The notes below the pieces were generated by a model. That model was given only the letters and a program-made list of their open reading frames with translations, did no database searches and was not told the origin of the DNA. Made by a program: the position numbers and the translations under genes. A stretch of 24,000 nt of DNA, taken from Aeromonas enteropelogenes (GTDB lineage Bacteria; Pseudomonadota; Gammaproteobacteria; Enterobacterales; Aeromonadaceae). The DNA is taken from assembly GCF_000819845.1 (NCBI RefSeq), contig NZ_CDCG01000037.1, positions 239,625-263,624 on the forward strand. The letters are read 5' to 3'. Below are positions 1,852-17,482 of this stretch, one piece after another. Every line of letters begins with the position of its first letter. Positions within the stretch are counted from its first letter, which is position 1.

Positions 1852-1867
1852 CATCATCAGCACAGAC

Positions 1868-1898: not shown

Positions 1899-1914
1899 TT
1901 TCTGGCAAACCGGT

Positions 1915-2580: not shown

Positions 2581-2793
2581 CCATCACCCTCTCTTGCTGC
2601 ATGAACCGCCGGCAAGATACCGGACTGGATGCCATCAATAGCATCATGTTCGGTTTAAACGACCAGTTGACAAAAAGTCTGAAGTCGGGCTGATTCAGTC
2701 CCGATACAGGCGGGGCGCATTAGGATACGGATTGACTCTGCATGACTAACCCTTTCTAATTGGCAGCCTGGACCTCCTATGACCGCCCATATC

Positions 2794-3468
2794 ATGAAAA
2801 TTTTGTTGGTCGAAGATGACAAGCTGCTCAATCACCACCTCTCCTCCCTGCTGACCGAGGCCGACAATCAGGTCTACAGCACGGATCAGGCTGGTATTGC
2901 GCTGCACTACGCCGCTGACTATCCCATTGATGTGGCCATCATCGATCTCGGCCTGCCGGACATGGACGGCCTGCAGCTGATCCGCCAGATGCGCGAACAA
3001 CAGATCCCCTTCCCCATCCTGATCCTGACCGCTCGTGGCAACTGGCAGGACAAGGTCGAGGGGCTGGAGGCGGGCGCCGATGACTACCTGGTCAAGCCGT
3101 TCCAGAAAGACGAGCTGCTGGCTCGCCTCAACGCTTTGCTGCGCCGCAGCGCCGGGTTTATCTCCCCACGGGTGAAGGCCGGTGATTACGAGCTGGATCT
3201 CTCCCGCAAGGAGCTGACCATCGCCGGCGAAGTGGCGGTACTCACCAGCTTCGAGTACCTCATTCTGGAATACCTGATGCGCAATGCCCGTCAGGTGGTT
3301 TCCAAGCAGCAGCTGCTCGATCAGCTCTACGGCGACGGCGAAGGGGACCCCAATACCATAGAGGTGATGGTGAGCCGGCTGCGCAAGAAGCTGGATCCGG
3401 AAGGGACGATTCAACCCATCTCCACCATCCGTCGCCAGGGCTACATCTTCAACCTGTCGTGCAACTGA
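2794..3468 (+). CDS. phoP: OmpR-family response regulator, PhoP-like
   Basis: The product MKILLVEDDKLLNHHL...DVAIIDLGLPDMDGLQLIRQMR...PILILTARGNWQDKVEGLEAGADDYLVKPF plus a winged-helix C-terminus closely parallels E. coli PhoP from memory. An alternative ATG at 2779 would add MTAHI. The stop overlaps the start of the kinase gene. Confidence 0.85.
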   Translation: MKILLVEDDKLLNHHLSSLLTEADNQVYSTDQAGIALHYAADYPIDVAIIDLGLPDMDGLQLIRQMREQQIPFPILILTARGNWQDKVEGLEAGADDYLVKPFQKDELLARLNALLRRSAGFISPRVKAGDYELDLSRKELTIAGEVAVLTSFEYLILEYLMRNARQVVSKQQLLDQLYGDGEGDPNTIEVMVSRLRKKLDPEGTIQPISTIRRQGYIFNLSCN

Positions 3469-4853: not shown

Positions 4854-4858
4854 CCCCC

Positions 4859-4881
4859 AGGGGCCCTGCCACAGGGCCCCT
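4859..4881 (+). terminator. hairpin downstream of phoQ
   Basis: AGGGGCCCTG-CCA-CAGGGCCCCT forms a perfect 10-bp stem 6 nt after the stop. The tail TGCTTTCC is only weakly U-rich. Confidence 0.5.
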
Positions 4882-5035
4882 TGCTTTCCCCTCCTGCAAT
4901 GCGGTTCGCGCCTGTCGTGTGCCCACCGCACAAATCCTCCACCGTTTTCATTCAGATACTTGTGATGCGCCCCATCTCGGTTAAGCTAGGGGGCGTTTTT
5001 GTCTGTTAACCCTTTGATGGACTTGCTATCACACC

Positions 5036-5524
5036 ATGGAAAACATGTTTGAAAGATTGATGTATGCATCGCGCTGGATCATGGCCCCCATCTACCTGGG
5101 ACTCAGCCTTATCCTGCTGGCACTGGGCCTGAAGTTCTTTCAGGAGATCATCCATATCCTGCCGAATATCTTCGCAATGAAAGAGGTGGATCTGGTGCTG
5201 GTCACCCTGTCACTGATCGATATCACCCTGGTGGGGGGGCTCATCGTGATGGTGATGTTTTCCGGTTATGAGAACTTCGTCTCGCGCCTCGACGTGGGGG
5301 ATGAGAGCGACAAGCTGGTATGGCTCGGCAAGCTCGACGCCGGTTCCCTGAAGAACAAGGTGGCCGCCTCCATCGTCGCCATCTCGTCCATTCACCTGCT
5401 CAAGGTGTTTATGAATGCCGAAAATATCCCCAATGACAAGATCAAATGGTACCTGTTGATCCATATCACCTTTGTCGTCTCCGCCTTTGCCATGGGCTAT
5501 CTGGACAAGCTGACCCGCAAATAA
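5036..5524 (+). CDS. yqhA: UPF0114 inner-membrane protein YqhA
   Basis: [46 protein letters not shown]... matches the conserved N-terminus of E. coli YqhA (MYASRWLLAPxYxGLSL...LKFFQEIIH) along the whole 162 aa. Confidence 0.85.
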
Positions 5525-5539
5525 GGCTCGGCCTTCATA

Positions 5540-5575
5540 CACTGCGGCCACCTTCGGGTGGCCGCAGTGTTTTTA
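5540..5575 (+). terminator. rho-independent terminator of yqhA
   Basis: CACTGCGGCCACC-TTCG-GGTGGCCGCAGTG forms a 13-bp stem with a tetraloop, followed by TTTTT. Confidence 0.85.
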
Positions 5576-5911
5576 CTCTTCCCCCTTTCACCGTATCCAG
5601 ACGTCCCACCGACCCATTCAGGCAGCAACCCAGCCCGTGTTTAATTTATTGATCAACGACTGATTATTGCCCATTGCCTCTTCCAGAAAAGGCTTCATTC
5701 GGTATCATGGTCGCTCGACAAAGCACCGCATCCAAAGGCTCGCCATGCGCCTTCTCAGCTATGCCGATTTTGTCCGAAGCATATTGGTTCATAACAGCAG
5801 TGTGGGAGCTGTAACTCAGGGGCGGTAGCATGACCGTAGTGAGTAATCCGTGATGACAAATGTTAAACCTTGAAGGATATGCATCCTTTATACCTATAAA
5901 AGCTCTTTATT

Positions 5912-6127
5912 ATGAAGAAAACTCAAATAATAAATCAATTGGTAGAGGCCGTAGATGTTCATACATTGGAGAGTTTTTCTGCTGATGATTATAGAAATTA
6001 TTTAAAGAGTGAAGGGCTATTTATGGTTAATCATCACGACATTCTAGTATCATCATGTGCTGGATACCCAATTGCCTTATCAAAGAAACATTTAGACATA
6101 TACATTGAAGAATTAAAAAAATATTAG
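5912..6127 (+). CDS. hypothetical 71-aa protein in an AT-rich islet (no recognisable family)
   Basis: Only an ORF of AT-rich codon usage (MKKTQIINQLVEAVDVHTLESF...IEELKKY). There is no convincing Shine-Dalgarno sequence and I recognise no homology. Confidence 0.35.
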   Translation: MKKTQIINQLVEAVDVHTLESFSADDYRNYLKSEGLFMVNHHDILVSSCAGYPIALSKKHLDIYIEELKKY

Positions 6128-6252
6128 ACATCTACTGCCATAATAAAATAGCACATATTATATACTTGTTTTATTCTCGTTTTTATTTTTTAAATGTCAG
6201 TTGTTTACCCTGTTTATTATCAACATTAAAATATCTCTGTTTGAGGGAAGCC

Positions 6253-6534
6253 GTGAGCAAGGTGACACTAAAGGGATTTATTATTGTTCCTCCATCAGAT
6301 TTAGCTCAGGTTAAAGATGAGCTTGCCAGACATATCCAACTGACTCGCACTGAGCCCGGTTGCCTTGTCTTTGAGGTAATTCAAGATAGCGCTAATCCAT
6401 GTCAATTCGATGTCTATGAAGAGTTTGTCGACAATATAGCCTTTCAAGCACACCAAGCCAGAGTCAAATCCTCGTATTGGGGAGAGATTACGGCCAACGT
6501 AGAGCGCCATTATACGGTGACGATAGCTGAATGA
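6253..6534 (+). CDS. antibiotic-biosynthesis-monooxygenase (ABM) domain protein, YgiN-like putative quinol monooxygenase
   Basis: A GTG at 6253 is preceded by GAGGGA. The 93-aa product VTLKGFIIVPPSDLAQVKDELARHIQLTRTEPGCLVFEVIQDSANPCQFDVYEEFVDNIAFQAHQ has the ABM ferredoxin-like signature (TRxEPGCLxFxVxQD...FxVYExFxDxxAFxxH). The ORF-track start at 6166 (TTG) adds an implausible Cys/Phe-rich leader. Confidence 0.7.
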   Translation: MSKVTLKGFIIVPPSDLAQVKDELARHIQLTRTEPGCLVFEVIQDSANPCQFDVYEEFVDNIAFQAHQARVKSSYWGEITANVERHYTVTIAE

Positions 6535-6632
6535 TTTTCAGCTACGAGAAAGTCATCATCTGTCCACGAACGCCCCATGACGCTTGACTCATCGAGTCAA
6601 CTCCATCTCCATTTTTAACTATTGAGGAAACC

Positions 6633-7061
6633 ATGATCCGTCCATTATCTACTGCCGATTTGGATGCCATGGTAGAGCTCTGGTATCAGGCATCCATACG
6701 GGCTCACCACTTTATCCCCGCCTCTTTCTGGTATGCACAGCGGGCGGCAATGCGGGATATCTATCTGCCCGCCAGCGAAAGCTGGGTCTATGAGGAAGGT
6801 AGCCAGCTCCTGGGGTTTGTCTCCTATCACCAGGGAGCACTCGCAGCCCTCTTTATTACCCCGGACAAGCAGTCACAGGGGCTGGGTCGCCAGCTGCTTG
6901 AGCACCTCAAAGGACAATATGAGCGCCTCGATTTGAAGGTATATGCAGAGAATGAAGCTGCGCAGCGCTTCTATGTCCGTAACGGTTTTACCGAGAGTGA
7001 ACATCAGGTGTGCGAGCATAGCGGCCGCGCCGAAATCGTCATGCATTGGCAACGAGGTTAA
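6633..7061 (+). CDS. GNAT-family N-acetyltransferase
   Basis: 142 aa. The acetyl-CoA binding motif A (ALFITPDKQSQGLGRQLLEHL) and the C-terminal AQRFYVRNGF are typical of GNAT enzymes. GAGGAA lies 4 nt upstream of the ATG. Confidence 0.85.
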   Translation: MIRPLSTADLDAMVELWYQASIRAHHFIPASFWYAQRAAMRDIYLPASESWVYEEGSQLLGFVSYHQGALAALFITPDKQSQGLGRQLLEHLKGQYERLDLKVYAENEAAQRFYVRNGFTESEHQVCEHSGRAEIVMHWQRG

Positions 7062-7221
7062 TCGCAGGTGGCCAACAGTAGTACCTAATCCGCCTAGCGA
7101 CGCCATGGCTGGCATGCAGTGGTGAGCTTAATCCGGCCGTATTGCCGGATAACCTCTTCTGTCCCCCCATAGCCCACATAATGCGGCGACCAGCTTCGAG
7201 CTTCCGAGCACTATTCGCCTG

Positions 7222-7255
7222 AACAACAAGGCCACCATTGGGTGGCCTTGTTGTT
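7222..7255. terminator. 15-bp perfect hairpin between the GNAT gene and the convergent sigma-54 activator gene
   Basis: AACAACAAGGCCACC-ATTG-GGTGGCCTTGTTGTT. The plus-strand arm ends in a T-rich run. It lies about 100 nt beyond the stop of the minus-strand activator gene and about 160 nt beyond the GNAT stop. Confidence 0.6.
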
Positions 7256-7358
7256 TCTGGCATCTTCCGGACAAGCCACGGACGGGTTGCAACACCGCCG
7301 CCCATACTCCCGCTGGTATAGGCCACTTCCTTCACGCCACCCTGGCGGGTTCGCCAGC

Positions 7359-8666
7359 TCACAGCAAATCGTGCTTGTCCAGCAGGCGGTAGAGGGTCGC
7401 ACGGGAGATATCGAGCTGGCGCGCCACCTCTTCCAGCTGATCCGGGAAACGGGTCAAGGTCCGTTGCAACGCCTGACGCTCCGCCGCTTCACGCACGGCC
7501 TTGAGAGAGTTGTTCATGTTCAGCAGCTGGGAGTCCCTGTGGATCAGCTCCATATCCTGGGCATCGATAAAGGGGCCCGAACACATGACGGCGGCCCGCT
7601 GTACCCGGTTGCGCAGCTCCCTGACATTGCCTGGCCAGTCGTAAGACTGCATGGCCTGGCGCGCCTTGCGGGTGAAGCTTATCATGCGATTGCCCCGCGC
7701 CTCGGCCAGGACCTCGTCCGCCAGCAGCTGGATGTCTTCGGCTCGCTCACGCAGCGCGGGTGTGCGCAGGCGCACCACATTGAGCCGATAGTAAAGGTCC
7801 ATGCGAAACGAGCCGTTGGCTACCGCCTGCTCTACGTCTATGTTAGTTGCGGCAATGACCCTCACATCGACGCTGCGGGACACATGGCTGCCCACCGCCT
7901 CTATGCTCTCCTCCTGCAAGAAACGCAGCAGGGTCGCCTGATCTTCGAGCGGCAGTTCGCCTATCTCATCGAGGAACAGGGTGCCGCCATCGGCCGCTTC
8001 TATCCTGCCTATCTTGCGACTCTGGGCTCCGGTGAAGGCCCCCTTGACGTGACCGAACAGCTCGGACTGGATCAGCTGGTGGGGCATGGCGCCACAGTTG
8101 ACGGCCACGAAGGGACTATCTTCCCCAAACGCGCTGTAGTGCAGCTCCCTGGCGACCAGCTCCTTGCCGGTACCGCTCGGCCCGGTCACCAGCACCGGCA
8201 GGCGACAGTGCTGCAAGCGCTGGATCTGTTCACGCAGCTGACGAATGGGGGCACTCTCCCCCTGAATGAAGTGCGGTTGTTCCGCTATTTTCGGGCGATA
8301 GCGCCTGATCAGCCGGGCCATGCCGAGGGCATGGCCCAGGCTGTGGGAGAGCCGTATCCGCTCGAGGGGAAAGGTGTGAAAATCATGGAAACAGGCGGCC
8401 AGCAAATTGCGCATCTCCTCACTGGCGAGGGCATCACGCTGGATCAGGCCAATCCACAGGCTGCTCGCGTGCTGCGTGATCAAGGCTGACAATGCCTCGT
8501 GCTGATCAGGCTCGATGGCCACCAGTACCAGGGGATAATCCTTCTCCTGCAACTTTCTCTCTGCCATCGCCAGTGAACTTGCCTGCTCCACCCGCCACTC
8601 GCTTTTGACCAGCAGACTCTCCAGTACGGCACATGAATTGATGAGCAATAATGCCGTTGCTGTCAT
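7359..8666 (-). CDS. sigma-54-dependent transcriptional activator (bacterial enhancer-binding protein) with an atypical N-terminal receiver-like domain
   Basis: The 435-aa product starts at ATG 8666, with AAGGAGG 7 nt upstream. The AAA+ core has Walker A GPSGTGKE, the sigma-54 contact loop GAFTGA, Walker B LFLDEIGE and RVIAATN. The C-terminus carries a Fis-type HTH ([22 protein letters not shown]). The ORF-track start at 8720 is not needed. Confidence 0.9.
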
Positions 8667-8909
8667 ATGGAAACCTCCTTGTTCGAGCTTCTTATAAGCG
8701 TGCCAATCCTGACCCCGCAAGGTTCATGTTTTTATTTTGATAGAAATTCTCATTATCAAAGAGCTTAATTTGAGCACGTCAGGTGACGATAACTATAAAC
8801 CATCCCGCCTAATTGACTGATGCGCAGCAATATTGAGACAAGTCAGTCTTAGGCTGAGAAAAATAAATTCATTGATAAACAACACCTTGGTGGATGACAT
8901 AAAAATGCA

Positions 8910-8925
8910 GTCTCAAATTTGAGAC
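8910..8925. promoter_or_regulatory. perfect 16-bp palindrome, candidate upstream activator sequence for the adjacent bEBP
   Basis: GTCTCAAATTTGAGAC is centred about 62 nt upstream of the -24 element. The TTGAGAC half-site recurs at 8833-8839, where it is followed by an imperfect GTCTTA. Confidence 0.35.
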
Positions 8926-8978
8926 AAAACGGTGCAACCTGAAAACACAAAAATCATTTAAATCAATAGGTTAAATTT

Positions 8979-8994
8979 TGGCACCTCCATTGCT
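8979..8994 (+). promoter_or_regulatory. sigma-54 (RpoN) -24/-12 promoter of the five-gene operon
   Basis: TGGCAC-CTCCA-TTGCT matches the consensus TGGCAC-N5-TTGCW with exact GG/GC spacing. It lies about 40 nt upstream of the first ATG and is divergent from a bEBP gene. Confidence 0.75.
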
Positions 8995-9032
8995 ATATCT
9001 GTAAACCCCAAGTGACAAACAATAGAGATAGC

Positions 9033-9611
9033 ATGATGAAATATATTGTCTTGGCGATCCTTTCACTCCTCCAATTGATGAACTCATCACAAGCGGAGAA
9101 TCGTGTTGATTTGGGGTCGCAAGCGCTTGGCAATATTCGTGGCAACCTGGGCGTCAATATGGTTGCTGGCAATCACAACCAACAAGGCAACCTCGCATCT
9201 ATTTCCCTCTCGGGTCCGGCCGTAATTCAGTTCAGCCAACAGAATCAATCCAGCATCACCCCGGGCGGTCACCAGAGCGTCGCTATCCATGGCGCGGCAC
9301 TTGGCCAGACCCAGGGGCTTTTGAGCATCAACCAGGCAGCGGGTGAAGCCAACCAGCAACTCAATGGCTTCGCATTGTCACTGGGCGACGACGGGATAAG
9401 CGTCGTGACCGACGTGAATCTGGGCAACAGTATCGCCAGCCCCTCCCCGGGCCAGCTCTCCGCAAGCATGACAACCAGCATCTATCTGGATGACAACGCC
9501 CTGAGCGGCAGTAAAGGGGTCATTCAGGTGAACCAGGTCACGGGACAGGGCAACCAGGCCGTCAACATGGTTGCCCTGCCCCTGGCGGGCGCAGTAACGG
9601 CATCACCCTGA
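9033..9611 (+). CDS. secreted repeat protein, FapB-like (putative amyloid nucleator/minor subunit)
   Basis: Signal peptide MMKYIVLAILSLLQLMNSSQA. Three imperfect repeats: GNLGVNMVAGNHNQQGNLASISL, GLLSINQAAGEANQQLNGFALSL, GVIQVNQVTGQGNQAVNMVALPL (DNA about 9126-9584). The protein is N/Q/G/A-rich with no Cys. It is the short-linker version of the next gene. The ORF-track GTG at 9012 is not needed. Confidence 0.6.
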   Translation: MMKYIVLAILSLLQLMNSSQAENRVDLGSQALGNIRGNLGVNMVAGNHNQQGNLASISLSGPAVIQFSQQNQSSITPGGHQSVAIHGAALGQTQGLLSINQAAGEANQQLNGFALSLGDDGISVVTDVNLGNSIASPSPGQLSASMTTSIYLDDNALSGSKGVIQVNQVTGQGNQAVNMVALPLAGAVTASP

Positions 9612-9698
9612 TGCCGCAGGGACAGGAAGCGAAGTCCGGGGGCGCAGCACCTGCCGATGGGCGGATCTTCCCCAGAAAGTTCAATGGAGAGACTCAAT

Positions 9699-10796
9699 AT
9701 GCGTGGACTTATTTACAGCTCATTAGCCGCCGCTGTCATCATGGCGATGTCCGGCACCGCATCCGCCGAGTACCGCGGTGACAAGGATGAGACAGGGGCA
9801 ACCTTGACCAAGAAGGTCAAGGCTGAGGTCGATGTGAAGTACGAAGGCAAGGTGATGGTCGGCGGCTTTGTCAACGTCAACAAGCTCGGCATGGCCGTCG
9901 TGGACAACCAGCAATCCAGCACCATGATAGGCACAGCCCACAGCAGAACGGAGAACGCAAGCAAGATTGATGGCTCGTTCCAGGGGGCATCCGGCAACAT
10001 CGGCGCCAACGTGGCGGCCGGTGACTCCAACGTGCAGGGCAACAGCGTCTCCCTGGCCGCCTATGACCAGGTCGATGCCGAGTTTGTCATGGGCGGTGGC
10101 CACCCTCACGGCAGCACGGGTGGCTCTTCGGATGCCGAGATCTTCTCCAGCCAGAGCGCCAGCATGAACTGGGCCAGCAACCAGGGGCACCAGAACAGGG
10201 CGAGTGTCGGTGGTGGCGCCTTCAAGAATGCCGCAGGCAATATCAACGCCAACGTGGCCTCCGGCTCCGGCAACGTGCAGGCCAACAACCTGGCCGCCTC
10301 GGTATCCACCGGCGCCATGGCGGTGGCCACCGTGGCCAACAGCCAGCATGTGTCCAAGAACCTGACCGAGAACAAGAGCCTGAGCGCCACCAGGACGGTG
10401 GAGAACGCCCCGGTTCACCTCAAGCTCGATGCCAAGGGTAATTACGAGGGGACGAGCAAGCAGTCCAACAATGTCTATCCGGAGATCTGGCAGGATCGTG
10501 ATCACCCCAACGGCGGCAGCCTCTGGGGTCACATCGACTACGACAATCTGGACAACGACGGCAGCAAGGACTCCAAGTTCGAGTTCAAGGAAGAGGGTGA
10601 CATGACACTGCACGGCTCGGTGACCGGCTACATCCCTGTGGTCAACACCTACACCGCCCGTGAGACCTTCAACCATGCCACCATAGACGGCGGCTCCTTC
10701 AATGGCGCCGTGGGCAATATCGGGGTGAACGTCGCGTCTGGCACCAACAATCTGCAAGCGAACAACCTCTCGCTGGCAGCCGGATTTGCCAAGTGA
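9699..10796 (+). CDS. secreted repeat protein, FapC-like (putative major amyloid fibre subunit)
   Basis: ATG 9699 has GGAGAG 7 nt upstream. Signal peptide MRGLIYSSLAAAVIMAMSGTASA. Three repeats (see the repeat feature) are separated by long linkers, and the last repeat sits at the extreme C-terminus. No Cys. Confidence 0.65.
   Translation: MRGLIYSSLAAAVIMAMSGTASAEYRGDKDETGATLTKKVKAEVDVKYEGKVMVGGFVNVNKLGMAVVDNQQSSTMIGTAHSRTENASKIDGSFQGASGNIGANVAAGDSNVQGNSVSLAAYDQVDAEFVMGGGHPHGSTGGSSDAEIFSSQSASMNWASNQGHQNRASVGGGAFKNAAGNINANVASGSGNVQANNLAASVSTGAMAVATVANSQHVSKNLTENKSLSATRTVENAPVHLKLDAKGNYEGTSKQSNNVYPEIWQDRDHPNGGSLWGHIDYDNLDNDGSKDSKFEFKEEGDMTLHGSVTGYIPVVNTYTARETFNHATIDGGSFNGAVGNIGVNVASGTNNLQANNLSLAAGFAK
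9975..10781 (+). repeat. three dispersed imperfect 29-codon repeats inside the FapC-like gene
   Basis: R1 9975-10061 SFQGASGNIGANVAAGDSNVQGNSVSLAA. R2 10218-10304 AFKNAAGNINANVASGSGNVQANNLAASV. R3 10695-10781 SFNGAVGNIGVNVASGTNNLQANNLSLAA. Confidence 0.85.
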
Positions 10797-10805
10797 TCCA
10801 CCCTT

Positions 10806-10832
10806 GGGGGGCCTGTGTGCCCCCCATTTTTT
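10806..10832 (+). terminator. intra-operon hairpin + T-run directly after the FapC-like gene (candidate partial terminator/attenuator)
   Basis: GGGGGGC-CTGTGT-GCCCCCC forms a 7-bp G/C stem followed by ATTTTTT. It starts 10 nt after the stop codon and ends 19 nt before the next ATG. Confidence 0.5.
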
Positions 10833-10850
10833 GCCCACAAGGAGGTGTCA

Positions 10851-11528
10851 ATGCGCTGGCTATTGCCGTTGCTGTTCAGCCCCGTCGTCTGGTCGGCGAC
10901 CCTGCCGATGGGAGAGCATCTCCCGGCGCTGGGGGGGCTTGCCAAACCGGTACAGAGCATCCAGGAGCGCCGCTATGCCAATCTCGAGCGCCAGCATACC
11001 GACTTCAGCTGTGGCGCGGCGGCGGTGGCCACCATACTGCGCCATGCCTATGGCCAGGCGACCAATGAACGCTGGGTGATGGACGGCATGATGGCCATGG
11101 CCGATCCGGCGCAGGTCAAACGCTACGGCTTTTCCATGCTGGACATGAAGCAGTACGTGCAGATGCTGGGGATGCGTGCCCGGGGTTACCGCCTGAGCGA
11201 TACCAAGCTGCGCCAGGTAAGGGTGCCGACCATAGTGCTGCTCAACATTCGCGGCTATCAGCACTTCGCCGTGCTGCGCGCCATCGACCGCCGTGACCGC
11301 GTCTATCTGGCAGACCCTGCCCTTGGCAACCGCATCATCTCGTTCAGGGAGTTCAAGGAGAGCTGGAACGGGATCCTGCTGGCCGTGATCGGTGCTGGCT
11401 ATCGCCCGGACGCTCCCCTGGCCAACCCCTCCCCCCCGTTCTCGGCCAGAGGCAGGGATGGGCTGTTCGCCCCGGTCAATGAAACATCCCTGCTGGACTT
11501 CGGCTTCCAGCACAAAGAGCTAATGTGA
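10851..11528 (+). CDS. periplasmic C39-family cysteine peptidase, FapD-like
   Basis: AAGGAGG lies 6 nt upstream of ATG 10851. Signal peptide MRWLLPLLFSPVVWSA. The catalytic-Cys motif is HTDFSCGAAAVATIL, with His in RGYQHFAVLRAID and Asp in VYLADPALG. This is the typical C39 peptidase-domain layout without an ABC transporter. Confidence 0.8.
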   Translation: MRWLLPLLFSPVVWSATLPMGEHLPALGGLAKPVQSIQERRYANLERQHTDFSCGAAAVATILRHAYGQATNERWVMDGMMAMADPAQVKRYGFSMLDMKQYVQMLGMRARGYRLSDTKLRQVRVPTIVLLNIRGYQHFAVLRAIDRRDRVYLADPALGNRIISFREFKESWNGILLAVIGAGYRPDAPLANPSPPFSARGRDGLFAPVNETSLLDFGFQHKELM

Positions 11529-11535
11529 GGTCACC

Positions 11536-12195
11536 ATGAACATCCGACCCGCCCTCTACCTCGTCTGCAGCCTGGGGGTATTGCCCCTCCCGCTACTGGC
11601 GACATCCGATCCCCTGGCACAGCTGTCGGATCAGTTTGCCCCGGAGCTCTCCGATGGCGAGCTGGAAGGCTTGCGGGGGCGTTATGTCAGCGCTCACGGC
11701 ATCCACTATTTTGGCATCGAGTTCATCTCCACCCTGACCACGGCCCAATCCCGGCAGACGGCAGCCATGAATCTGGCTTTGAGCGTTGAGCAGCACACCC
11801 CCAGGCTGGAGATCCGCATCAAGGAGGGGGCCAGCGCGGTCGCCACGGCCCCGGCCAGCGCCCCTGTGCAGGGGGCCGGGCTGGTGCAGGTGATGCAGCT
11901 GGAAGGGCGCGGCAACCGCTCGGTGAACCTCACCGGCATCGGGACGACGCCCCCCGAGATGGCCGGGGAGCTTGTCTCCGCCGGCCATTATCAGCAGCAG
12001 AGCGTGCTCGGCACCGCCAGTTACAGCGTCTCGGGCAACTACGCGGGTCTGCAGTTCAATACCCCGGATGGCAGCGTCCGGCTGGAGCAGAGCCTGCGGG
12101 GCACGGACTTCAGTCGCGGCCTGCTGCAACTCAATCGGGTCAGGGGGGATGGTTTGCAGACCCTCAACCAGACGAGGATCTGGTTCTCCCGCTAG
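11536..12195 (+). CDS. secreted protein, FapE-like by position; contains two subunit-type repeat segments
   Basis: Signal peptide MNIRPALYLVCSLGVLPLPLLA. GLVQVMQLEGRGNRSVNLTGI and the C-terminal GLLQLNRVRGDGLQTLNQT resemble the G-h-x-Q-V-N-Q-x-x-G-x-G-N-x-x-x-N repeats of the first gene. Its start is 8 nt after the preceding stop. Confidence 0.5.
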   Translation: MNIRPALYLVCSLGVLPLPLLATSDPLAQLSDQFAPELSDGELEGLRGRYVSAHGIHYFGIEFISTLTTAQSRQTAAMNLALSVEQHTPRLEIRIKEGASAVATAPASAPVQGAGLVQVMQLEGRGNRSVNLTGIGTTPPEMAGELVSAGHYQQQSVLGTASYSVSGNYAGLQFNTPDGSVRLEQSLRGTDFSRGLLQLNRVRGDGLQTLNQTRIWFSR

Positions 12196-12254
12196 CCTCT
12201 GCTCCCCTGACGGCACGAAAAAAGGACGATAAACGACAACAAGGATCCGCTCCC

Positions 12255-13451
12255 ATGAAACAGTCCCCCCTGCTGTTGATGATGTTGACCCCGCTGACTT
12301 GCTGGGGTGCCACCGCAGAAGAAGAGGCGTTGCAACAACAGCTGGATCAGTTGCGCCAGCAGCTGATCCAGCAAAACCAGGCGCTCCACCAGCTGCAGGC
12401 CAGACTGGAAGCCGTCAAGAGCAGCGGAGTAACCGCGACGGGCACCGGCACGGCTGCCGTGACACCGGCCAAGGCACCGCAGGAGCCGGACCGTCGCAGC
12501 CCGGAGCCCGGTCGCAGCACCGAAGATCTGCTGCTGGAGCAGCACAACGTCTTCGATCGCGCCCTGACCTTCGACCTCGGCCTCTCCTACCAGCACTACA
12601 ACCGCAAGGATCTCGCCCTGCGCGGCTTTCTCGCGCTGGATGCCATCTTTCTTGGCGAGATCAATCTGGACAGGGTGCGATCCGATCAGATCAGTGCCGA
12701 TCTGGTGACCCGCTACACCCTCAACGATCGCTGGCAGCTGGAGCTCGCCATTCCCTACCTGTTTCGCAGCAGCAACTACCAGAGCACCGGCAAGGATAAC
12801 TCCAGCCGCAGTTTCGAGGAGCAGAGCGTCAGCGACGGGGGCCTCGGCGATCTCAGCCTCGCCGTCTACTACCGGGTCATGGCCGAAGACGAGGAGTGGC
12901 CGGATCTGGTGTGGAATGTCAGGGTCAAGGCACCGACCGGCAAGGACCCCTATGGCATCGAGCTCGACACCTCGGCATCGGGCAACCTGATGACCCCGAA
13001 GGAGCTCGCCACCGGCAACGGGCTCTGGCAGCTGTCGACCGGTTTCTCGCTGGTCAGGACCCTGGATCCCGCCATCCTGTTCGCCAACATCAACTATGGC
13101 CACAGCCTCAAGGAGGATTTTGACGACATCTCCTATCAACCGGGGCAGCAACCGGGCAGCGTCCAACTGGGTGACTGGTTTGAATACGGGCTCGGGGTCG
13201 CATTCGCCCTAAACGAGCGTTTCAGCCTCTCCTTCAACATCAACCAGCGCATCACCCGCGAGTCCGAGCAGGGGGCGGAAGGGTTCGGGATGGAGAAGGT
13301 CATCGGCTCGGATGCCAACGCGGCGAGTTTTGGCATGGGTTCGACATGGGCCATCACCGACCGGCTCTCCATGGTGGTCAACTGGTCGGCAGGGCTCACC
13401 ACGGATGCTCCCGACTACAGTATCGGGATCCGTTTTCCTTACCGCTTCTAG
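12255..13451 (+). CDS. outer-membrane beta-barrel protein with N-terminal coiled coil, FapF-like (putative amyloid secretion channel)
   Basis: Signal peptide MKQSPLLLMMLTPLTCWGA. A Q/L heptad-like segment EEEALQQQLDQLRQQLIQQNQALHQLQARLEAVK is followed by a T/P/A-rich linker. After that comes an alternating-hydrophobic strand pattern ending ...YSIGIRFPYRF, with a C-terminal Phe as in OM barrels. Confidence 0.7.
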   Translation: MKQSPLLLMMLTPLTCWGATAEEEALQQQLDQLRQQLIQQNQALHQLQARLEAVKSSGVTATGTGTAAVTPAKAPQEPDRRSPEPGRSTEDLLLEQHNVFDRALTFDLGLSYQHYNRKDLALRGFLALDAIFLGEINLDRVRSDQISADLVTRYTLNDRWQLELAIPYLFRSSNYQSTGKDNSSRSFEEQSVSDGGLGDLSLAVYYRVMAEDEEWPDLVWNVRVKAPTGKDPYGIELDTSASGNLMTPKELATGNGLWQLSTGFSLVRTLDPAILFANINYGHSLKEDFDDISYQPGQQPGSVQLGDWFEYGLGVAFALNERFSLSFNINQRITRESEQGAEGFGMEKVIGSDANAASFGMGSTWAITDRLSMVVNWSAGLTTDAPDYSIGIRFPYRF

Positions 13452-13494
13452 TCAGACCGAGTGTGAGAGGCTGGTTTTATGGGGAACAAACAAT

Positions 13495-13517
13495 GAGGGA
13501 GGCATGATGCCTCCCTC
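13495..13517. terminator. hairpin between the convergent FapF-like gene and puuB
   Basis: GAGGGAGGC-ATGAT-GCCTCCCTC forms a perfect 9-bp stem. The minus-strand tail (CATTGTTTGTT) is moderately T-rich and the plus-strand tail is not. Confidence 0.5.
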
Positions 13518-13574: not shown

Positions 13575-14852
13575 TTACACTCCCAGGCGATCGCGCAGGG
13601 TGTACCAGGCAGCGCCGGCGGCGGTGAAGGGAATGCGGAACATGCGGCCCCCCGGGAAGGGGTAGTGGGGCAGTTTGGCAAACGCATCGAAGCGCTCCGC
13701 CTGACCGCTCAACACCTCGGAGAGCAGCTTGCCCGCCAGATGGGTACAGGTGACGCCGTGGCCGCTGTAGCCCTGCATGTAGTAGATGTTGGGGCCGATA
13801 CGACCAAACTGCGGCAGGCGCGACAGGGTCAGCAGGAAGTTGCCGGTCCAGGTGTACTCCACCTTGACGTCGGCAAGCTGGGGGAAGGTTTTGCGCATCT
13901 TGGGGATGATCAGCCGCTCGATATCCGCCGGATCCCGCGCCCCGTAAACCACACCGCCGCCATAGATGAGCCGGTGATCGGCGCTGGTGCGGTAGTAGTC
14001 GAGCAGGTAGTTGCAGTCTTCCACGCAGTAGTTTTGCGGCAGCAGTGAACGGGCCCGCTCCTCCCCCAGCACTTCGGTGGTGATCACTTGGGTGCCACAG
14101 GGCATGCTCTTGCCGGCGAGCTCGGGCACCAGGTTGCCGAGATAGGCGTTGCCGGCCACCATCACGAAACGCGCCTTGACCGCCCCCTTGGCGGTCTTCA
14201 CCAGCGCAGGCTGGCCCGGCGTGATGCTGGTGACGGCGGATTGTTCGAAAATAAGCCCCCCCTGCATGCGGATCGCCTCCGCCTCCCCCAGCGCCAGGTT
14301 GAGGGGGTGGATATGGCCGCCGCTCTTGTCGAGCAGGGCGCCGACGTAGCGATCGCTCGCCACCACTTCACGCACCCCCTTGGCATCGAGCAGCTCCAGC
14401 TTGTCATTGCCCCACTTCTGCCAGCGGGCCTGCTGGGCCTTGAGTTCGTGCAGCTGCTTCTCGGTCTCGGCGGCGAACACTCCCCCTTCCTGCAGATCGC
14501 ACTGGATGTTGTAGCGCTTGATGCGATCGCGGATGATCTGGCCCCCTTCAAACAACATGGAACCGAGCAGCCTGGCCTGATCCGGCGGGCAGTTCGCTTC
14601 TATGGTGTCGATGTCACGGCTGTAGGAGTTGACGATCTGGCCGCCGTTGCGACCGCTGGCGCCAAAGCCGACCCGGGCCGCCTCCAGCACCACCACCTTG
14701 TATCCCTTCTCCACCAGGTGGAGCGCACTGGAGAGGCCGGTATAACCCGCCCCGATGACGCAGACATCGCACTCCAGTTGCTCGGTCAGAGTGGCAAAAG
14801 GCGCATGTTGATTGGCGCTGGCTGCGTAGTAACTGTTTACATGCTCGGTCAT
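13575..14852 (-). CDS. puuB: gamma-glutamylputrescine oxidoreductase (FAD-dependent)
   Basis: The 425-aa product from ATG 14852 (MTEHVNSYYAASANQHAPF...CDVCVIGAGYTGLSSALHL...GASGRNGGQ...MPCGTQVITTE...YYMQGYSGHGVTCTHLAG...LRDRLGV) is collinear end to end with E. coli PuuB as I recall it. The ORF-track start at 14942 would overlap puuR and is rejected. Confidence 0.9.
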   Translation of the reverse strand: MTEHVNSYYAASANQHAPFATLTEQLECDVCVIGAGYTGLSSALHLVEKGYKVVVLEAARVGFGASGRNGGQIVNSYSRDIDTIEANCPPDQARLLGSMLFEGGQIIRDRIKRYNIQCDLQEGGVFAAETEKQLHELKAQQARWQKWGNDKLELLDAKGVREVVASDRYVGALLDKSGGHIHPLNLALGEAEAIRMQGGLIFEQSAVTSITPGQPALVKTAKGAVKARFVMVAGNAYLGNLVPELAGKSMPCGTQVITTEVLGEERARSLLPQNYCVEDCNYLLDYYRTSADHRLIYGGGVVYGARDPADIERLIIPKMRKTFPQLADVKVEYTWTGNFLLTLSRLPQFGRIGPNIYYMQGYSGHGVTCTHLAGKLLSEVLSGQAERFDAFAKLPHYPFPGGRMFRIPFTAAGAAWYTLRDRLGV

Positions 14853-14902
14853 GATCCCTGTTTCCTTACCGGTTCTTTTCCCTAGCGAGGCATCGCCTGT
14901 CA

Positions 14903-15460
14903 CTAGAAATTTGCCGGGGTATGCGCGCTGACGATGCGGCATGTCTGCCCCGACGGATTGCTGAAGCTGTGGGGCTCGCCCGTGTCGATCACATAGCTGT
15001 CGCCCGCTTCCAGCTGATAACTCTGTCCTGCCACCGTCAGGGTCACCGACCCCTCCAGCACCGTGCCGACCTCCTCCCCCTGGTGCTTGACCTGGCCACC
15101 GGTGTCGGTGCCGGGGGGATAGGTCTCCAGCATGAAGCCGAGCTGGCGGCGGTTGTTGCCGTTGTGCACCAGCTTCATGGAGACCCCCTGGCTGCCCAGC
15201 TCGATCAGCTGCTCGGCCTTGATCACCACGCCCGGCACGCTCTGCTCCTCTTCGGCGAAAAAGCGCGACAGTGGCAGGCCGTAGACGGTGAGCAGCTTTT
15301 GCAGGGAGGCCACCGACGGGCTCACCTTGTCCTGCTCTATCATGCAGATGGCGCCGTGGGTCAGGCCGCTCAGCTCGGCGGCTCGCCGCTGGGAGAGCCC
15401 CAGCTGATGGCGCACCGCCGCCAGCCGCTCCCCCATGCTCTGGTATGGCAACCCGCTCAT
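14903..15460 (-). CDS. puuR: HTH (XRE) + cupin transcriptional repressor PuuR
   Basis: 185 aa, the same length as E. coli PuuR. Matching segments are GLSQRRAAELSGLTHGAICMIEQDKVSPSVASLQKLLTVYGL, GSQGVSMKLVHNGN, KHQGEEVGTVLEG, PHSFSN and RIVSAHTP. Confidence 0.9.
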   Translation of the reverse strand: MSGLPYQSMGERLAAVRHQLGLSQRRAAELSGLTHGAICMIEQDKVSPSVASLQKLLTVYGLPLSRFFAEEEQSVPGVVIKAEQLIELGSQGVSMKLVHNGNNRRQLGFMLETYPPGTDTGGQVKHQGEEVGTVLEGSVTLTVAGQSYQLEAGDSYVIDTGEPHSFSNPSGQTCRIVSAHTPANF

Positions 15461-15584
15461 GGCAGTCCCCGGGTATCTTCGCTCTTGCCTCTTTGGTACA
15501 TGATCAACCTCCCTGTCGCCGCTGGTTAAAATAGCGGACCAATCATCCCCCCGGCTGTTTGCTATGTTACACAGCGCGAGCGTT

Positions 15585-15597
15585 CATTATTTTGCAC
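15585..15597 (-). promoter_or_regulatory. GTGCAAAATAATG box upstream of puuR (candidate shared operator of the puu cluster)
   Basis: On the minus strand this reads GTGCAAAATAATGAAC, about 125 nt upstream of the puuR ATG. The same 13-mer pattern, GTGCAAAWWAATG, occurs upstream of both puuP copies (18804, 20921). Confidence 0.4.
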
Positions 15598-15814
15598 ACC
15601 CTTGATACCATCCTGTGGCACCATATGGGATATACCGTGCGTCACAGCCCATTTTCTAGCATGCCAAACACCAACAATTCAAATATATTTAACACTTGAA
15701 AAACATTTCGGCTCACTTTATGTTCTCCCTGTGCTTATTATTTTATACGGCAGCACCACAGGGAGGGTCGGGTAACCGGCCCCCTGCTGCCCGGATCCAC
15801 ACTCGAGGCTTCCC

Positions 15815-17278
15815 ATGTCAGGAACTACACCCAACAGCAGCTTGATCAAATCCCGCGCCTATATAGATGGTCACTGGTGCGATGCCGCCAGCGGCCGCAC
15901 CTTCGAGGTCACCAATCCGGCCAGCGGTGCCGTGATTACCCAGGTGCCCGACATGAATGCCGAGGATACCCGCCGCGCCATCGACGCCGCCAAGGCCGCC
16001 CAACCGGCCTGGGCCGCCCTGACCGCCAAGGAGCGCAGCAACAAACTTTACGCCTGGTTTGCCGCCATCACTGCCCACACCGACGAGCTGGCCCGCATCA
16101 TGACCTGCGAGCAGGGCAAGCCGCTGGCCGAAGCCAAGGGGGAAGTGGCCTACGGCGCCAGCTTCATCCAGTGGTTCAGTGAGGAGGGCAAACGCGCCTA
16201 CGGCCGCACCATCCCGGGTTTTAGCGGCGATCGCCGTCTGGCCACCATCAAGCAGCCAGTGGGGGTGGTTGCCGCCATCACCCCGTGGAACTTCCCCATC
16301 GCCATGATCACCCGCAAGGCGGGTCCGGCGCTGGCCGCCGGTTGCACCATCGTCATCAAGCCTGCCGCCGAGACCCCCCTGTGCGCCCTCGCCCTGGCGG
16401 CACTGGCCGAAGAGGCGGGCATCCCGGCCGGCGTCATCAACATCATCACCTCCCATCAGGCGGCAGCGGTGGGTGACGAGCTGTGCCAGAACCCTGTGGT
16501 ACGCAAGCTCTCGTTCACCGGCTCGACCCGCATCGGCAAGCTCTTGATGCGCCAGTGCGCCGACACCATGAAGCGGGTGTCGCTGGAACTTGGCGGCAAC
16601 GCCCCCTTCATCGTCTTTGACGACGCAGATCTCGATGCCGCCGTAGCAGGGGCGCTGGCCTCCAAATACCGCAATGCGGGCCAGACCTGCGTCTGCGCCA
16701 ACCGCATCCTGGTGCAATCGAGCGTCTACGACGCCTTCACCGAGAAGCTGACCGCCGCCGTCAAAGCCTTCAAGGTGGGGGATGGCATGAGCGAGGGCAC
16801 CCAGATTGGCCCCCTCATCAACCCCGCCGCCGCCAGCAAGGTGGCCGAACTGGTCAACCAGGCCCGGGACGCCGGTGCCAGGGTGCTGCTGGGGGGGGAA
16901 GCCCACCCCGCCGGCCCGCTCTTCTATCAGCCCACCATCCTCGGCGAGGTGAAGAGGGACAACCCCATCCTGCAGGAGGAGATCTTCGGCCCGGTGGCAC
17001 CGCTGGTGCGCTTTGACAGCGAAGAGCAGGCCATTGCGCTGGCCAACGACACCCCCTATGGCCTGGCCGCCTACTTCTATGGCCGCGACATCGCCCGGGT
17101 GTGGCGAGTTGCCGAGCGGCTCGAATACGGCATGGTGGGCATCAACGAGGGGATCATCTCCACCGAACTGGCCCCCTTTGGCGGCATCAAGGAGTCGGGT
17201 CTGGGCCGCGAAGGGGCGGCCGAGGGGCTGGAGGAGTACCTCGAGACCAAATACCTCTGCTTTGGCGCCATCCGCTAG
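15815..17278 (+). CDS. gabD: NAD(P)+-dependent succinate-semialdehyde dehydrogenase
   Basis: 487 aa of the aldehyde dehydrogenase family. It has AITPWNFP, the catalytic region ELGGNAPFIVFDDAD and GQTCVCANR, and the C-terminal GGIKESGLGREG. It is globally GabD-like and sits next to gabT. Confidence 0.9.
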   Translation: MSGTTPNSSLIKSRAYIDGHWCDAASGRTFEVTNPASGAVITQVPDMNAEDTRRAIDAAKAAQPAWAALTAKERSNKLYAWFAAITAHTDELARIMTCEQGKPLAEAKGEVAYGASFIQWFSEEGKRAYGRTIPGFSGDRRLATIKQPVGVVAAITPWNFPIAMITRKAGPALAAGCTIVIKPAAETPLCALALAALAEEAGIPAGVINIITSHQAAAVGDELCQNPVVRKLSFTGSTRIGKLLMRQCADTMKRVSLELGGNAPFIVFDDADLDAAVAGALASKYRNAGQTCVCANRILVQSSVYDAFTEKLTAAVKAFKVGDGMSEGTQIGPLINPAAASKVAELVNQARDAGARVLLGGEAHPAGPLFYQPTILGEVKRDNPILQEEIFGPVAPLVRFDSEEQAIALANDTPYGLAAYFYGRDIARVWRVAERLEYGMVGINEGIISTELAPFGGIKESGLGREGAAEGLEEYLETKYLCFGAIR

Positions 17279-17482
17279 ACAGGATAACGATCACCCCACT
17301 GACCTTCCCTTCACAAGGGAAGGAGCAAACCCAGCCCTCCCCCCCATGGGAAGGGCATGGGCGGGGTCTGGCCAGCCTGCCAAGGCTTGCCACCACACTA
17401 TTCAAGGACGAAGTGAGCGCTCCCGCCCGGGAGCCTCGCCAACACTCAAGAGAGGGGGCAAACGCCCCCGCAGGGAGGAAAA

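Follow-up and report, generated by a model that had tools for sequence, protein, structure and literature searches.

A probable fapA-less Fap functional-amyloid module with a divergent sigma-54 activator gene in Aeromonas enteropelogenes

Gene content of the locus

In this study, we analysed a 24-kb stretch of DNA from Aeromonas enteropelogenes (the window), in which five plus-strand genes (9033–13451) lie divergently from a minus-strand gene for a BrfA-type sigma-54 enhancer-binding protein (7359–8666, 435 aa). The five open reading frames agree with those of an earlier note on this DNA, their starts are those of the public gene calls, and the intergenic gaps from fapB to fapF are 87, 54, 7, and 59 nt. 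By sequence comparison, the structural genes are homologues of FapB, FapC, FapD, FapE, and FapF. The earlier note had read them as a Fap-type operon in a non-pseudomonad, and the profile-HMM searches that it proposed bear this out: each of the five products matches an NCBIfam Fap model (E values of 1.9e-24 for FapB, 1.8e-46 for FapC, 5.8e-74 for FapD, 8.6e-9 for FapE, and 6.9e-117 for FapF), and FapF and FapC also match solved Fap structures. All five scores lie below the curated equivalog cut-offs (score/cut-off: FapB 86/190, FapC 159/195, FapD 248/330, FapE 35/250, and FapF 391/700); the products are therefore divergent relatives of the Pseudomonas proteins and not equivalogs by NCBI's rule. 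The genes carry no Fap names in the public annotation, as had been anticipated, and appear there as hypothetical protein, Adhesin, C39 family peptidase, and transporter. The signal peptides described for all five products were also recovered, each with one basic residue, a hydrophobic stretch (best 10-residue Kyte-Doolittle mean of 2.0–2.8), and a small-residue cleavage-like site; these calls come from a sequence heuristic.

Amyloid subunits

The fapB gene (9033–9611, plus strand) encodes a 192-aa minor or nucleator amyloid subunit, whose whole length covers positions 5–186 of the 190 positions of the FapB profile and which is assigned to the precomputed Pfam family PF27129 (FapBC). Three imperfect repeats had been claimed for this protein. 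The second and third match each other clearly (score 66; null 32 ± 5), whereas the first, probed with a FapC repeat, is barely above the null (score 57; null maximum 55). In the 365-aa major amyloid subunit encoded by fapC (9699–10796, plus strand), all three proposed repeats are well supported, with scores of 97–175 against a maximum of 65 in shuffled controls. They occupy residues 92–121, 172–199, and 331–365 (nucleotides 9972–10061, 10212–10295, and 10689–10793), and a long acidic linker separates repeats 2 and 3. FapC matches the PDB FapC fibril entries 9nqd and 9u4u with E values of about 1e-8.

Peptidase, minor component, and secretion channel

The product of fapD (10851–11528, plus strand; 225 aa) is a periplasmic C39-type cysteine peptidase, in line with its earlier description, since it matches Pfam Peptidase_C39 (E 1e-20) and its Gln, Cys, His, and Asp residues align with those of PDB 6mpz. 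The assignment of fapE (11536–12195, plus strand; 219 aa) as a minor fibre-associated component is the weakest of the five, as the model match is partial and limited to the N-terminal half. The gene occupies the syntenic slot between fapD and fapF, and tblastn matches are found at the same position in many loci. The two repeat-like segments once described in FapE are not significant (score 38; null 25.6 ± 4.8, null maximum 43).

The fapF gene (12255–13451, plus strand) encodes a 398-aa outer-membrane amyloid secretion channel. Its signal peptide is followed by a coiled-coil segment made of Q/L-rich heptads, a T/P/A linker, a plug helix, and a beta-barrel with a terminal Phe (...PYRF). The coiled coil, linker, and Phe-terminated barrel agree with the architecture reported in the earlier note. 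Residues 82–398, including the KAPTGK motif, align with FapF in PDB 5o65 (E 2.2e-89).

Two other readings of these genes were weighed. A Fil-type pilus, or another fibre system that combines a C39 peptidase with a barrel protein, would account for the matches of NCBIfam FilB to gene 3 (E 3.9e-30) and of FilC to gene 5 (E 2.2e-11). We regard it as extremely unlikely, because the Fap models outscore the Fil models by a wide margin (248 versus 105 bits for gene 3 and 391 versus 44 bits for gene 5), genes 1, 2, and 4 match the FapB, FapC, and FapE models, and the FapF and FapC products match solved Fap structures. Equally improbable is that gene 5 is a COG4313 or 'MetA-pathway' channel for hydrophobic compounds, in a cluster that serves uptake and not secretion. 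FapF is structurally related to COG4313 channels (PMC6173800), and gene 5 has a Pfam Phenol_MetA_deg match (E 2.9e-8) and the public name 'transporter'; however, the FapF-specific matches are full length and much stronger, its N-terminal coiled coil and linker are characteristic of FapF, and the fapBCDE context of the gene is conserved in 80 loci.

The reported absence of fapA was also confirmed: plus-strand ORFs in the 366-nt intergenic region between the activator gene and fapB are at most 29 aa, and no convincing match was found when ten FapA candidates from Pseudomonas and Halomonas were compared with the 24-kb window. Such an arrangement is not new, as Dueholm et al. (2013) had already catalogued Aeromonas caviae Ae398 with FapA 'Absent' and FapB–F in consecutive genes (Table S1).

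Activator protein

For the activator gene, the most likely start is the ATG at 8666, also used by the public gene calls, and not the TTG at 8720; its public name is 'sigma-54-dependent transcriptional regulator [Aeromonas enteropelogenes]'. Its product contains the Pfam domains VpsR (N-terminal, 5e-12), Sigma54_activat (9e-67), AAA_lid_14, and HTH_8, a Fis-type HTH. The AAA+ sigma-54 interaction domain has a Walker A motif, a Walker B motif (LFLDEIG), and an intact GAFTGA motif, and GAFTGA and both Walker motifs are invariant among 30 fap-linked activator homologues. Over its full length (438 aligned positions, E 5e-118), the protein shares 45% identity with the activator found next to fap in P. 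atacamensis. This comparison was made with the protein at the BrfA position in a fluorescens-group genome, not with the BrfA sequence of PF07 itself; the ORF at that position is 1,326 bp long, the same as the published length of brfA. By its domains and motifs, the product of the divergent gene is a canonical sigma-54 activator and belongs to one family with the fap-adjacent activators of other genera.

Promoter and intergenic elements

The earlier note had paired a sigma-54 promoter with an adjacent enhancer-binding protein, and both were found. A predicted sigma-54 (-24/-12) promoter, TGGCACCTCCATTGCT, is located on the plus strand at 8979–8994, 39 nt upstream of fapB. It is the sole zero-mismatch sigma-54 consensus in the window and the sole sigma-54 site between the activator gene and fapB; sites with up to one mismatch have a background rate of 0.033 per kb. 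The predicted transcription start lies near 9005. All Aeromonas loci keep the promoter at -53/-54 relative to fapB, and most other genera have an equivalent site ahead of their first fap gene.

A perfect 16-bp palindrome, GTCTCAAATTTGAGAC (8910–8925), is centred approximately 87 nt upstream of the predicted transcription start and is the only match to TCTCA-N4-TGAGA (up to one mismatch) in the window. Aeromonas, Oceanisphaera, most Shewanella, and Vibrio (where the spacer is 2 nt) have this motif at -65 to -68 relative to the -24 element, and fluorescens-type Pseudomonas has it at -78 to -80. Of 50 upstream regions, 29 contain the motif, compared with a mean of 2.5 and a maximum of 8 in shuffles. 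In several genera its spacing from the downstream -24 element is fixed, which suggests that GTCTCA-N4-TGAGAC is likely the enhancer (UAS) for the activator. A distal cluster of TGAGA/TCTYA half-sites at 8834–8860 (TGAGAC at 8834–8839 and GTCTTAGGCTGAGAA at 8846–8860) contains, at -132 relative to the -24 element, a copy of the motif with one mismatch and a 3-nt spacer; distal sites with a 4-nt spacer are present at -133/-134 in Shewanella loci and at -153/-155 in Oceanisphaera loci. This cluster is a candidate second activator-binding site, with weaker evidence than the proximal palindrome.

Directly upstream of the -24 element, AATCAATAGGTTA (8961–8973, plus strand) is the sole match in the window to the IHF consensus WATCAANNNNTTR (0.21 expected by chance) and is kept with 0–1 mismatch in four other Aeromonas species. 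The site is unusually close to the -24 element, and we only infer a role for IHF here. Besides the promoter, the most conserved block in a five-species Aeromonas alignment of the divergent intergenic region is the 17-mer GATAACTATAAACCATC (8789–8805), which overlaps a weak minus-strand -10-like TATAGT. With this weak sigma-70-like match, it may be the activator's own promoter.

Linkage of the activator to fap

An activator of the same kind is found beside fap in 70 of 80 loci from many genera, including essentially all Pseudomonas loci. Its position is the only difference in arrangement among the loci, with the divergent one confined to Aeromonas and Oceanisphaera. It could be argued that the adjacency is coincidental, with the activator serving another target and fap controlled by another activator. 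Bacteria have many enhancer-binding proteins, a related activator lies 5–7 kb away in some fap loci, and the link in Aeromonas rests on sequence. Nevertheless, the linkage persists across four different gene arrangements, homology between Aeromonas species starts exactly at the activator stop codon, and A. molluscorum shares only the activator–fapF block. Moreover, deletion of the gene at the equivalent position in P. fluorescens abolishes fap expression (PMC9207406), and the intergenic region holds no second sigma-54 site. Coincidence is thus quite unlikely, and we consider the divergent gene the probable activator of fap.

Hairpins within and after the operon

A terminator scan detected a GC-rich hairpin on the plus strand at 10805–10832, 9 nt past the fapC stop codon, with an 8-bp stem followed by a T6 run and a folding energy of -17.7 kcal/mol. 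Sequence-unrelated hairpins are present at this position in A. lusitana, all five Oceanisphaera loci, S. nanhaiensis, several Pseudomonas loci, and others, but not in all loci; in a scan of loci from four other Aeromonas species, the post-fapC hairpin failed in three. It is a candidate partial terminator that may set the ratio of subunit to machinery transcripts. A palindromic hairpin at 13495–13517, between the convergent fapF and downstream oxidase genes, likely marks the end of the operon transcript. This region folds with -31 kcal/mol (z-score -2.5), and its T-run is better on the minus strand.

Conservation and proposed mechanism

DNA of the activator-to-fapF module is approximately 78% identical between Aeromonas species with every ORF intact, which points to selection. 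FapE and FapB are the most diverged products (65–75% identity). This divergence, the missing fapA, and the scores below the equivalog cut-offs might be taken as signs that the locus is silent, or a decaying remnant unable to make fibres. We consider this very improbable: the six ORFs are intact in dozens of A. enteropelogenes assemblies and four other Aeromonas species; the promoter, palindrome, catalytic residues, and repeats are all retained; and Pseudomonas fibres still form after loss of fapA (PMC3792158).

The activator gene and fapBCDEF thus very probably constitute a complete, self-contained Fap functional-amyloid module, for which we propose the following mechanism. At high c-di-GMP, the BrfA-type activator would act on the GTCTCA-N4-TGAGAC palindrome and, with ATP and possibly the help of IHF, remodel sigma-54 RNA polymerase at the promoter to allow fapBCDEF transcription. 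The hairpin after fapC would probably stop part of the transcripts and thereby keep expression of the subunit genes fapB and fapC above that of fapDEF. Sec would carry all products into the periplasm, where FapD may process them or license secretion, and a trimeric FapF channel would provide the exit for unfolded FapB, FapC, and FapE. With FapB as the seed, FapC would then polymerise into cross-beta fibres that reinforce the biofilm. Like other Aeromonas, this locus has no FapA chaperone, so its fibres may contain a relatively high share of FapB.

Comparison with known systems

The closest parallel is the Pseudomonas Fap system (fapABCDEF; Dueholm et al. 2010, 2013), which has the same fapB-C-D-E-F order, three-repeat subunits, a periplasmic C39 peptidase, signal peptides on all products, and a channel with a coiled coil, plugged barrel, PTG motif, and C-terminal Phe. 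The Aeromonas locus differs in lacking fapA, in its sub-equivalog products (FapF is 38–45% identical to its Pseudomonas relatives), and in the long acidic linker of FapC. The fap operon of A. caviae Ae398 is of the same fapA-less consecutive type in another species of the genus; its activator and promoter were outside the discussion of Dueholm et al. (2013).

The earlier note had considered the regulation to be unlike that of Pseudomonas, a view that does not hold. In P. fluorescens PF07, 5'-RACE mapped a -24/-12 RpoN promoter for fapA-E, the adjoining brfA encodes an RpoN-dependent, c-di-GMP-sensing fap activator, and fap expression is lost in P. fluorescens upon deletion of brfA or rpoN (PMC9207406, PMC13101488). 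BrfA (Guo et al. 2022, 2024), approximately 440 aa long, has the same domain set as the activator described here; both face a -24/-12 promoter before the first fap gene, which in A. enteropelogenes is predicted. Fluorescens-type loci carry a related palindrome, GTCTCA-N4-TGAAAC, upstream of the fap promoter. The activator gene is upstream and divergent in A. enteropelogenes, whereas PF07 brfA is downstream and convergent, and the promoter precedes fapB instead of fapA. Sigma-54 control of fap via an adjacent BrfA was thus published for P. fluorescens in 2022–2024, and neither the fapA-less Aeromonas operon nor this mode of control is new; the locus is real but ordinary.

VpsR of Vibrio cholerae (PDB 7v2b), a c-di-GMP-dependent biofilm activator, resembles the activator in its N-terminal VpsR-type domain (Pfam PF20161) and its overall enhancer-binding-protein layout, and a c-di-GMP response of the Aeromonas activator is putative. 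VpsR works with sigma-70, and it has no GAFTGA and an altered Walker B motif (PMC6158489), whereas the activator described here retains both GAFTGA and the DE pair of Walker B and is encoded opposite a sigma-54 promoter. The curli system of Enterobacteria (csgBAC / csgDEFG) works on the same principle: a nucleator is paired with a major subunit of imperfect repeats, export has its own outer-membrane channel, and a dedicated regulator is encoded in a divergent unit. However, its proteins are unrelated, and CsgD is a LuxR-type regulator at rpoS-dependent promoters and not a sigma-54 activator.

Five structural genes of the Fap type

The five structural genes lie on the forward strand in the order fapB (9033–9611), fapC (9699–10796), fapD (10851–11528), fapE (11536–12195), and fapF (12255–13451). 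They are separated by intergenic gaps of 87, 54, 7, and 59 nt, and all five starts match the public gene calls on identical contigs. An earlier note, made from the sequence alone, had proposed a Fap-type identity for this cluster, and in a profile search each protein matched its own NCBIfam Fap model: FapB (E 1.9e-24, profile positions 5–186 of 190, 86 bits against a cut-off of 190), FapC (E 1.8e-46, 159 bits against an equivalog cut-off of 195), FapD (E 5.8e-74, 248 bits against 330), FapE (E 8.6e-9, residues 20–136 only, 35 bits against 250), and FapF (E 6.9e-117, 391 bits against 700). None of the five proteins reaches its curated equivalog cut-off. A simple hydrophobicity check indicated that the N-termini of all five products resemble Sec signal peptides. 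The earlier observation is confirmed, with minor corrections.

FapB, of the minor or nucleator subunit type, has approximately 190 residues, and its gene is assigned to Pfam FapBC in the precomputed gene table. Three repeats had been described in each of the first two products. Repeats 2 and 3 of FapB resemble each other significantly and repeat 1 is only marginal, whereas all three repeats of FapC, which corresponds to the major subunit, score well over the shuffled null. FapC also matches the fibril structures PDB 9nqd and 9u4u (E about 1e-8) through these repeats. The description of FapD as a stand-alone periplasmic C39 peptidase agrees with its Pfam Peptidase_C39 match (E 1e-20), its signal-like N-terminus, and the alignment of its Gln, Cys, His, and Asp residues with PDB 6mpz, a double-glycine C39 protease domain. 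The assignment of FapE, a putative minor component, is the weakest among the five; its position between fapD and fapF is syntenic in the compared loci, and the two repeats previously noted in it are not significant. In FapF, a heptad-like segment rich in Q and L and a T/P/A linker occupy residues 19–80. Residues 82–398, which run from the plug helix through the final Phe and contain the KAPTGK motif, match the crystal structure of Pseudomonas FapF (PDB 5o65, E 2.2e-89). This layout agrees with the proposed order of coiled coil, linker, and barrel. The fapF product also has a Pfam match to the COG4313-type barrel family. Readings of the cluster as a COG4313 uptake system or as a Fil pilus were both rejected in view of score and context.

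The absence of fapA, also claimed in the earlier note, was borne out. The region upstream of fapB (8667–9032) contains no forward-strand ORF longer than 29 amino acids, and neither this spacer nor the rest of the window holds a fapA gene; FapA candidates of ten loci gave nothing convincing. A tblastn search with Pseudomonas FapA hit the N-terminus of FapE weakly (best E 6.8e-5, in a 24-kb database), but a FapA profile and phmmer found no such similarity across 67 FapE candidates, and the match was judged to be due to chance. Loss of fapA is the commonest known deviation of fap operons, occurring in 6 of 16 genera (PMC3792158), and does not exclude membership in the Fap family. In the same survey, Dueholm et al. 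(2013) placed Aeromonas among the deviating genera, and their Table S1 lists FapA of A. caviae Ae398 as "Absent" and FapB–F as consecutive genes (PMC3792158).

Exact copies of all six proteins (the five Fap products and the activator described below) are present in many A. enteropelogenes assemblies. Their public names were expected to be uninformative, and they are: "hypothetical protein" or "Adhesin" for genes 1 and 2, "C39 family peptidase" for gene 3, "hypothetical protein" for gene 4, "transporter" for gene 5, and "sigma-54-dependent transcriptional regulator" for the activator. The generic names of the five structural genes are explained by scores that fall short of the curated equivalog thresholds. 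With no gene of the six labeled as Fap or BrfA, the current annotation conceals the Fap system.

The activator and its predicted target promoter

The activator gene (7359–8666, reverse strand) is divergent from fapB and encodes a 435-residue enhancer-binding protein with a VpsR-type N-terminus, a sigma-54 AAA+ domain, an AAA lid, and a Fis-type HTH (Pfam). Walker A, GAFTGA, and Walker B (LFLDEIG) are intact, and GAFTGA, Walker A, and the DE pair of Walker B are invariant columns in an alignment of fap-linked activators. An LFRS-type arginine upstream of the AAA+ core, as in FleQ-style c-di-GMP contacts, was not evident by eye. Identity to a syntenic fluorescens-group protein, the BrfA-position protein of P. 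atacamensis (441 amino acids), is 45% (E 5e-118) from residue 6 to the end. The BrfA-position ORF in the fluorescens-group genomes of our set is 1326 bp long, equal to the published length of brfA. The domain architecture, the adjacency to fap with full-length homology, and the −24/−12 promoter of the target together identify the protein, at the sequence level, as a BrfA-type activator. In VpsR of Vibrio cholerae, GAFTGA is missing and Walker B is degenerate, and the protein works at sigma-70 promoters (PMC6158489), whereas the activator described here retains GAFTGA and LFLDEIG and faces a promoter of the sigma-54 type; it therefore falls outside the atypical sigma-70 class of VpsR.

The spacer between the activator gene and fapB is 366 nt long and AT-rich (37% G+C). 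It contains the sole perfect sigma-54 consensus within the window, TGGCACCTCCATTGCT (8979–8994, forward strand), which places the predicted transcription start near 9005, approximately 28 nt ahead of the fapB ATG. In a spacer alignment of five Aeromonas species, this promoter is conserved together with four further elements: the single IHF-consensus match of the window (8961–8973, forward strand), a perfect 16-bp palindrome, GTCTCAAATTTGAGAC (8910–8925), extra TGAGA half-sites (8834–8860), and a 17-mer, GATAACTATAAACCATC (8789–8805), which is almost invariant while the rest of the spacer is variable. Palindromes of this type are the best candidate for the binding site of the activator. The 17-mer overlaps a weak −10-like hexamer on the reverse strand and may serve either as the promoter of the activator gene or as a site for another regulator; on the reverse strand of 8667–9032, no sigma-54 promoter for the activator gene better than four mismatches was found. 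The fapB leader is predicted to be unstructured, and an Rfam search of the locus detected no c-di-GMP riboswitch or other known RNA in it.

Activator linkage across fap loci

A scan with a FapF alignment, covering a single genome of each species, yielded 80 fap loci from Aeromonas, Oceanisphaera, Shewanella, Vibrio, Moritella, Halomonas, Pseudomonas and relatives, Methylotenera, Aquitalea, and others. An activator homolog (tblastn and ORF extraction) stands beside fap in 70 of these loci, with 39–51% identity to that of the window, rising to 75–86% in the four Aeromonas loci. The fap-linked activators are usually 435–460 residues long, and among 30 representatives the sigma-54 domain is present in all and the VpsR domain in 28. 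The regulator published for P. fluorescens thus appears to travel with fap in most genera, as the survey suggests. Where no activator was found (10 loci), contig ends cut six loci. Flanks of 10 kb on both sides hold no BrfA-type activator in L024 (Polaromonas), L044 (Vreelandella sulfidaeris), L048 (Halomonas sp. G11), and L080 (a Caenibius MAG). In these four, fap may be under different control, or the activator gene may lie in another part of the genome.

Four arrangements were observed. The activator gene is upstream and divergent in 9 loci, exclusively from Aeromonas and Oceanisphaera; upstream on the same strand in 24 (Shewanella, Moritella, Halomonas, Marinobacterium, and others); downstream and convergent in 28 (Pseudomonas and relatives); and downstream on the same strand in 9 (Vibrio, Aquitalea, one Amphritea, one Marinobacterium MAG, and, at a distance of approximately 7 kb, Methylotenera). 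Some loci have unusual layouts. In a Moritella locus (L021), fapD precedes fapB; in two Aquitalea loci (L070 and L076), fapF and the activator share one strand, opposing fapBCDE on the other; and in three Methylotenera loci (L037, L050, and L066), fapF is separated from the remaining fap genes, with the activator ~7 kb away.

In most fapA-less loci, a sigma-54 consensus lies 51–123 nt ahead of fapB (146 nt in two Oceanisphaera loci), and in Pseudomonas and some Halomonas-group loci it lies about 510–560 nt before fapB, that is, ahead of fapA. Of 50 regions preceding the −24 element, 29 contain the motif TCTCA-N4-TGAGA (at most one mismatch), compared with a mean of 2.5 and a maximum of 8 in shuffles. 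The palindrome keeps a fixed position relative to the −24 element, at −65 to −68 in Aeromonas, Oceanisphaera, most Shewanella, and Vibrio (with a 2-nt spacer) and at −78 to −80 in fluorescens-type Pseudomonas; Shewanella and Oceanisphaera have a second copy about 66 or 88 nt farther upstream.

We consider it fairly probable that the BrfA-type activator, the GTCTCA-N4-TGAGAC enhancer, and the sigma-54 promoter form an ancestral, portable part of Fap systems in all lineages and are not a peculiarity of Pseudomonas. If so, c-di-GMP acting via sigma-54 would be a general on-switch for Fap in Aeromonas, Oceanisphaera, Shewanella, Vibrio, Halomonas, and others. A regulator linked to fap in most genera and a shared enhancer, as proposed, would make it possible to read fap regulation from the sequence in Shewanella, Vibrio, and Aeromonas. 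Within this ancestral-module reading, the regulator may have moved to the divergent position in Aeromonadaceae, giving a self-contained 6.1-kb cassette (7359–13451).

Boundaries of the cassette and its flanks

DNA homology to the fap loci of A. lusitana, A. aquatica, and A. rivipollensis starts exactly at the activator stop codon (7355–7361) and runs rightwards into putrescine-type catabolism genes, and in A. molluscorum the common DNA is limited to 7361–13451. The left neighbors of the cassette differ between species, and nothing corresponding to the left flank (1–7355) is present at fap loci in other Aeromonas species. These limits of homology indicate that the activator and fapBCDEF behave as one 6.1-kb unit.

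Within the left flank, the G+C content of 5001–7000 is 0.44–0.49, compared with about 0.62 elsewhere in the window, and this stretch beside the cassette may be a lineage-specific insertion. On the forward strand, 5795–5832 matches the JUMPstart element (ops/RfaH antitermination signal; Rfam RF01707) with 41.4 bits, above the gathering score of 35, and precedes three small forward ORFs: 5912–6127, 6166–6534 (ABM-type), and 6633–7061 (GNAT acetyltransferase). JUMPstart elements normally precede long surface-polysaccharide or pilus operons, and this placement is unusual. The right flank (13575–18778 and 19142–22615) encodes a putrescine/GABA-type catabolic set unrelated to fap, comprising an FAD oxidase, an HTH-cupin regulator, an aldehyde dehydrogenase, an aminotransferase, and two amino-acid permeases, and it is syntenic in the loci of three of the four other fap-bearing Aeromonas species.

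Proposed regulation and fiber assembly

We propose a pathway for fap expression and fiber assembly in A. enteropelogenes. The gene identities, promoter, activator family, fap linkage, and conserved palindrome are established by sequence comparison, and the dependence of fap on RpoN and BrfA and the c-di-GMP signal are adopted by analogy from published P. fluorescens work. The activator would bind the palindrome centered at approximately −87, and perhaps the distal half-sites too. Presumably switched on by c-di-GMP, it would then remodel the sigma-54 polymerase at 8979–8994. A GC-rich hairpin and T-run right after fapC (10805–10832) is a candidate partial terminator, at which part of the operon mRNA would end. 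Similar hairpins followed by a T-run, 8–20 nt past the fapC stop codon and with unrelated stem sequences, occur in several genera (the window and the comparison loci L004, L008, L010, L012, L015, L019, L022, L072, and L074). They are found in A. lusitana, all five Oceanisphaera loci, S. nanhaiensis, several loci of Pseudomonas, and some others, though not in every locus. This recurrence suggests selection for the structure, which would either lower fapDEF relative to fapBC or stabilize the fapBC message. Following the Fap model (PMC6173800 and PMC5557850), the products would be exported by Sec, the FapD peptidase and the trimeric FapF channel would serve export and assembly, and FapB would nucleate FapC fibers with FapE as a minor component. 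The locus is a concrete candidate for a biofilm matrix fiber of A. enteropelogenes together with its switch (the activator, sigma-54, and probably c-di-GMP).

Comparison with known Fap systems

Guo et al. (2022) mapped a −24/−12 RpoN promoter before fapA in P. fluorescens PF07 and reported that fap transcription and the biofilm matrix require rpoN and brfA, the latter being the adjacent reverse gene downstream of fapF (PMC9207406). As relayed in PMC13101488 and bioRxiv 10.64898/2026.01.27.702051, Guo et al. (2024) described BrfA as an enhancer-binding protein and direct c-di-GMP sensor that is widespread in Pseudomonas. In the literature we found, the link between BrfA and fap is stated for Pseudomonas only. 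The gene matches, the promoter, and the activator family support the earlier proposal of a fapA-less Fap system under sigma-54 control. The accompanying statement that such control by a dedicated activator is unlike Pseudomonas was incorrect, since both the RpoN promoter and the adjacent brfA are published for P. fluorescens (PMC9207406). The family-wide BrfA-type linkage, the four arrangements, the divergent position specific to Aeromonadaceae, and the shared enhancer proposal are modestly new, although they may already have been published. Compared with fap regulation in Pseudomonas, A. enteropelogenes differs only in where the activator gene lies and which way it is oriented, and our findings extend known biology rather than define a new type of system.
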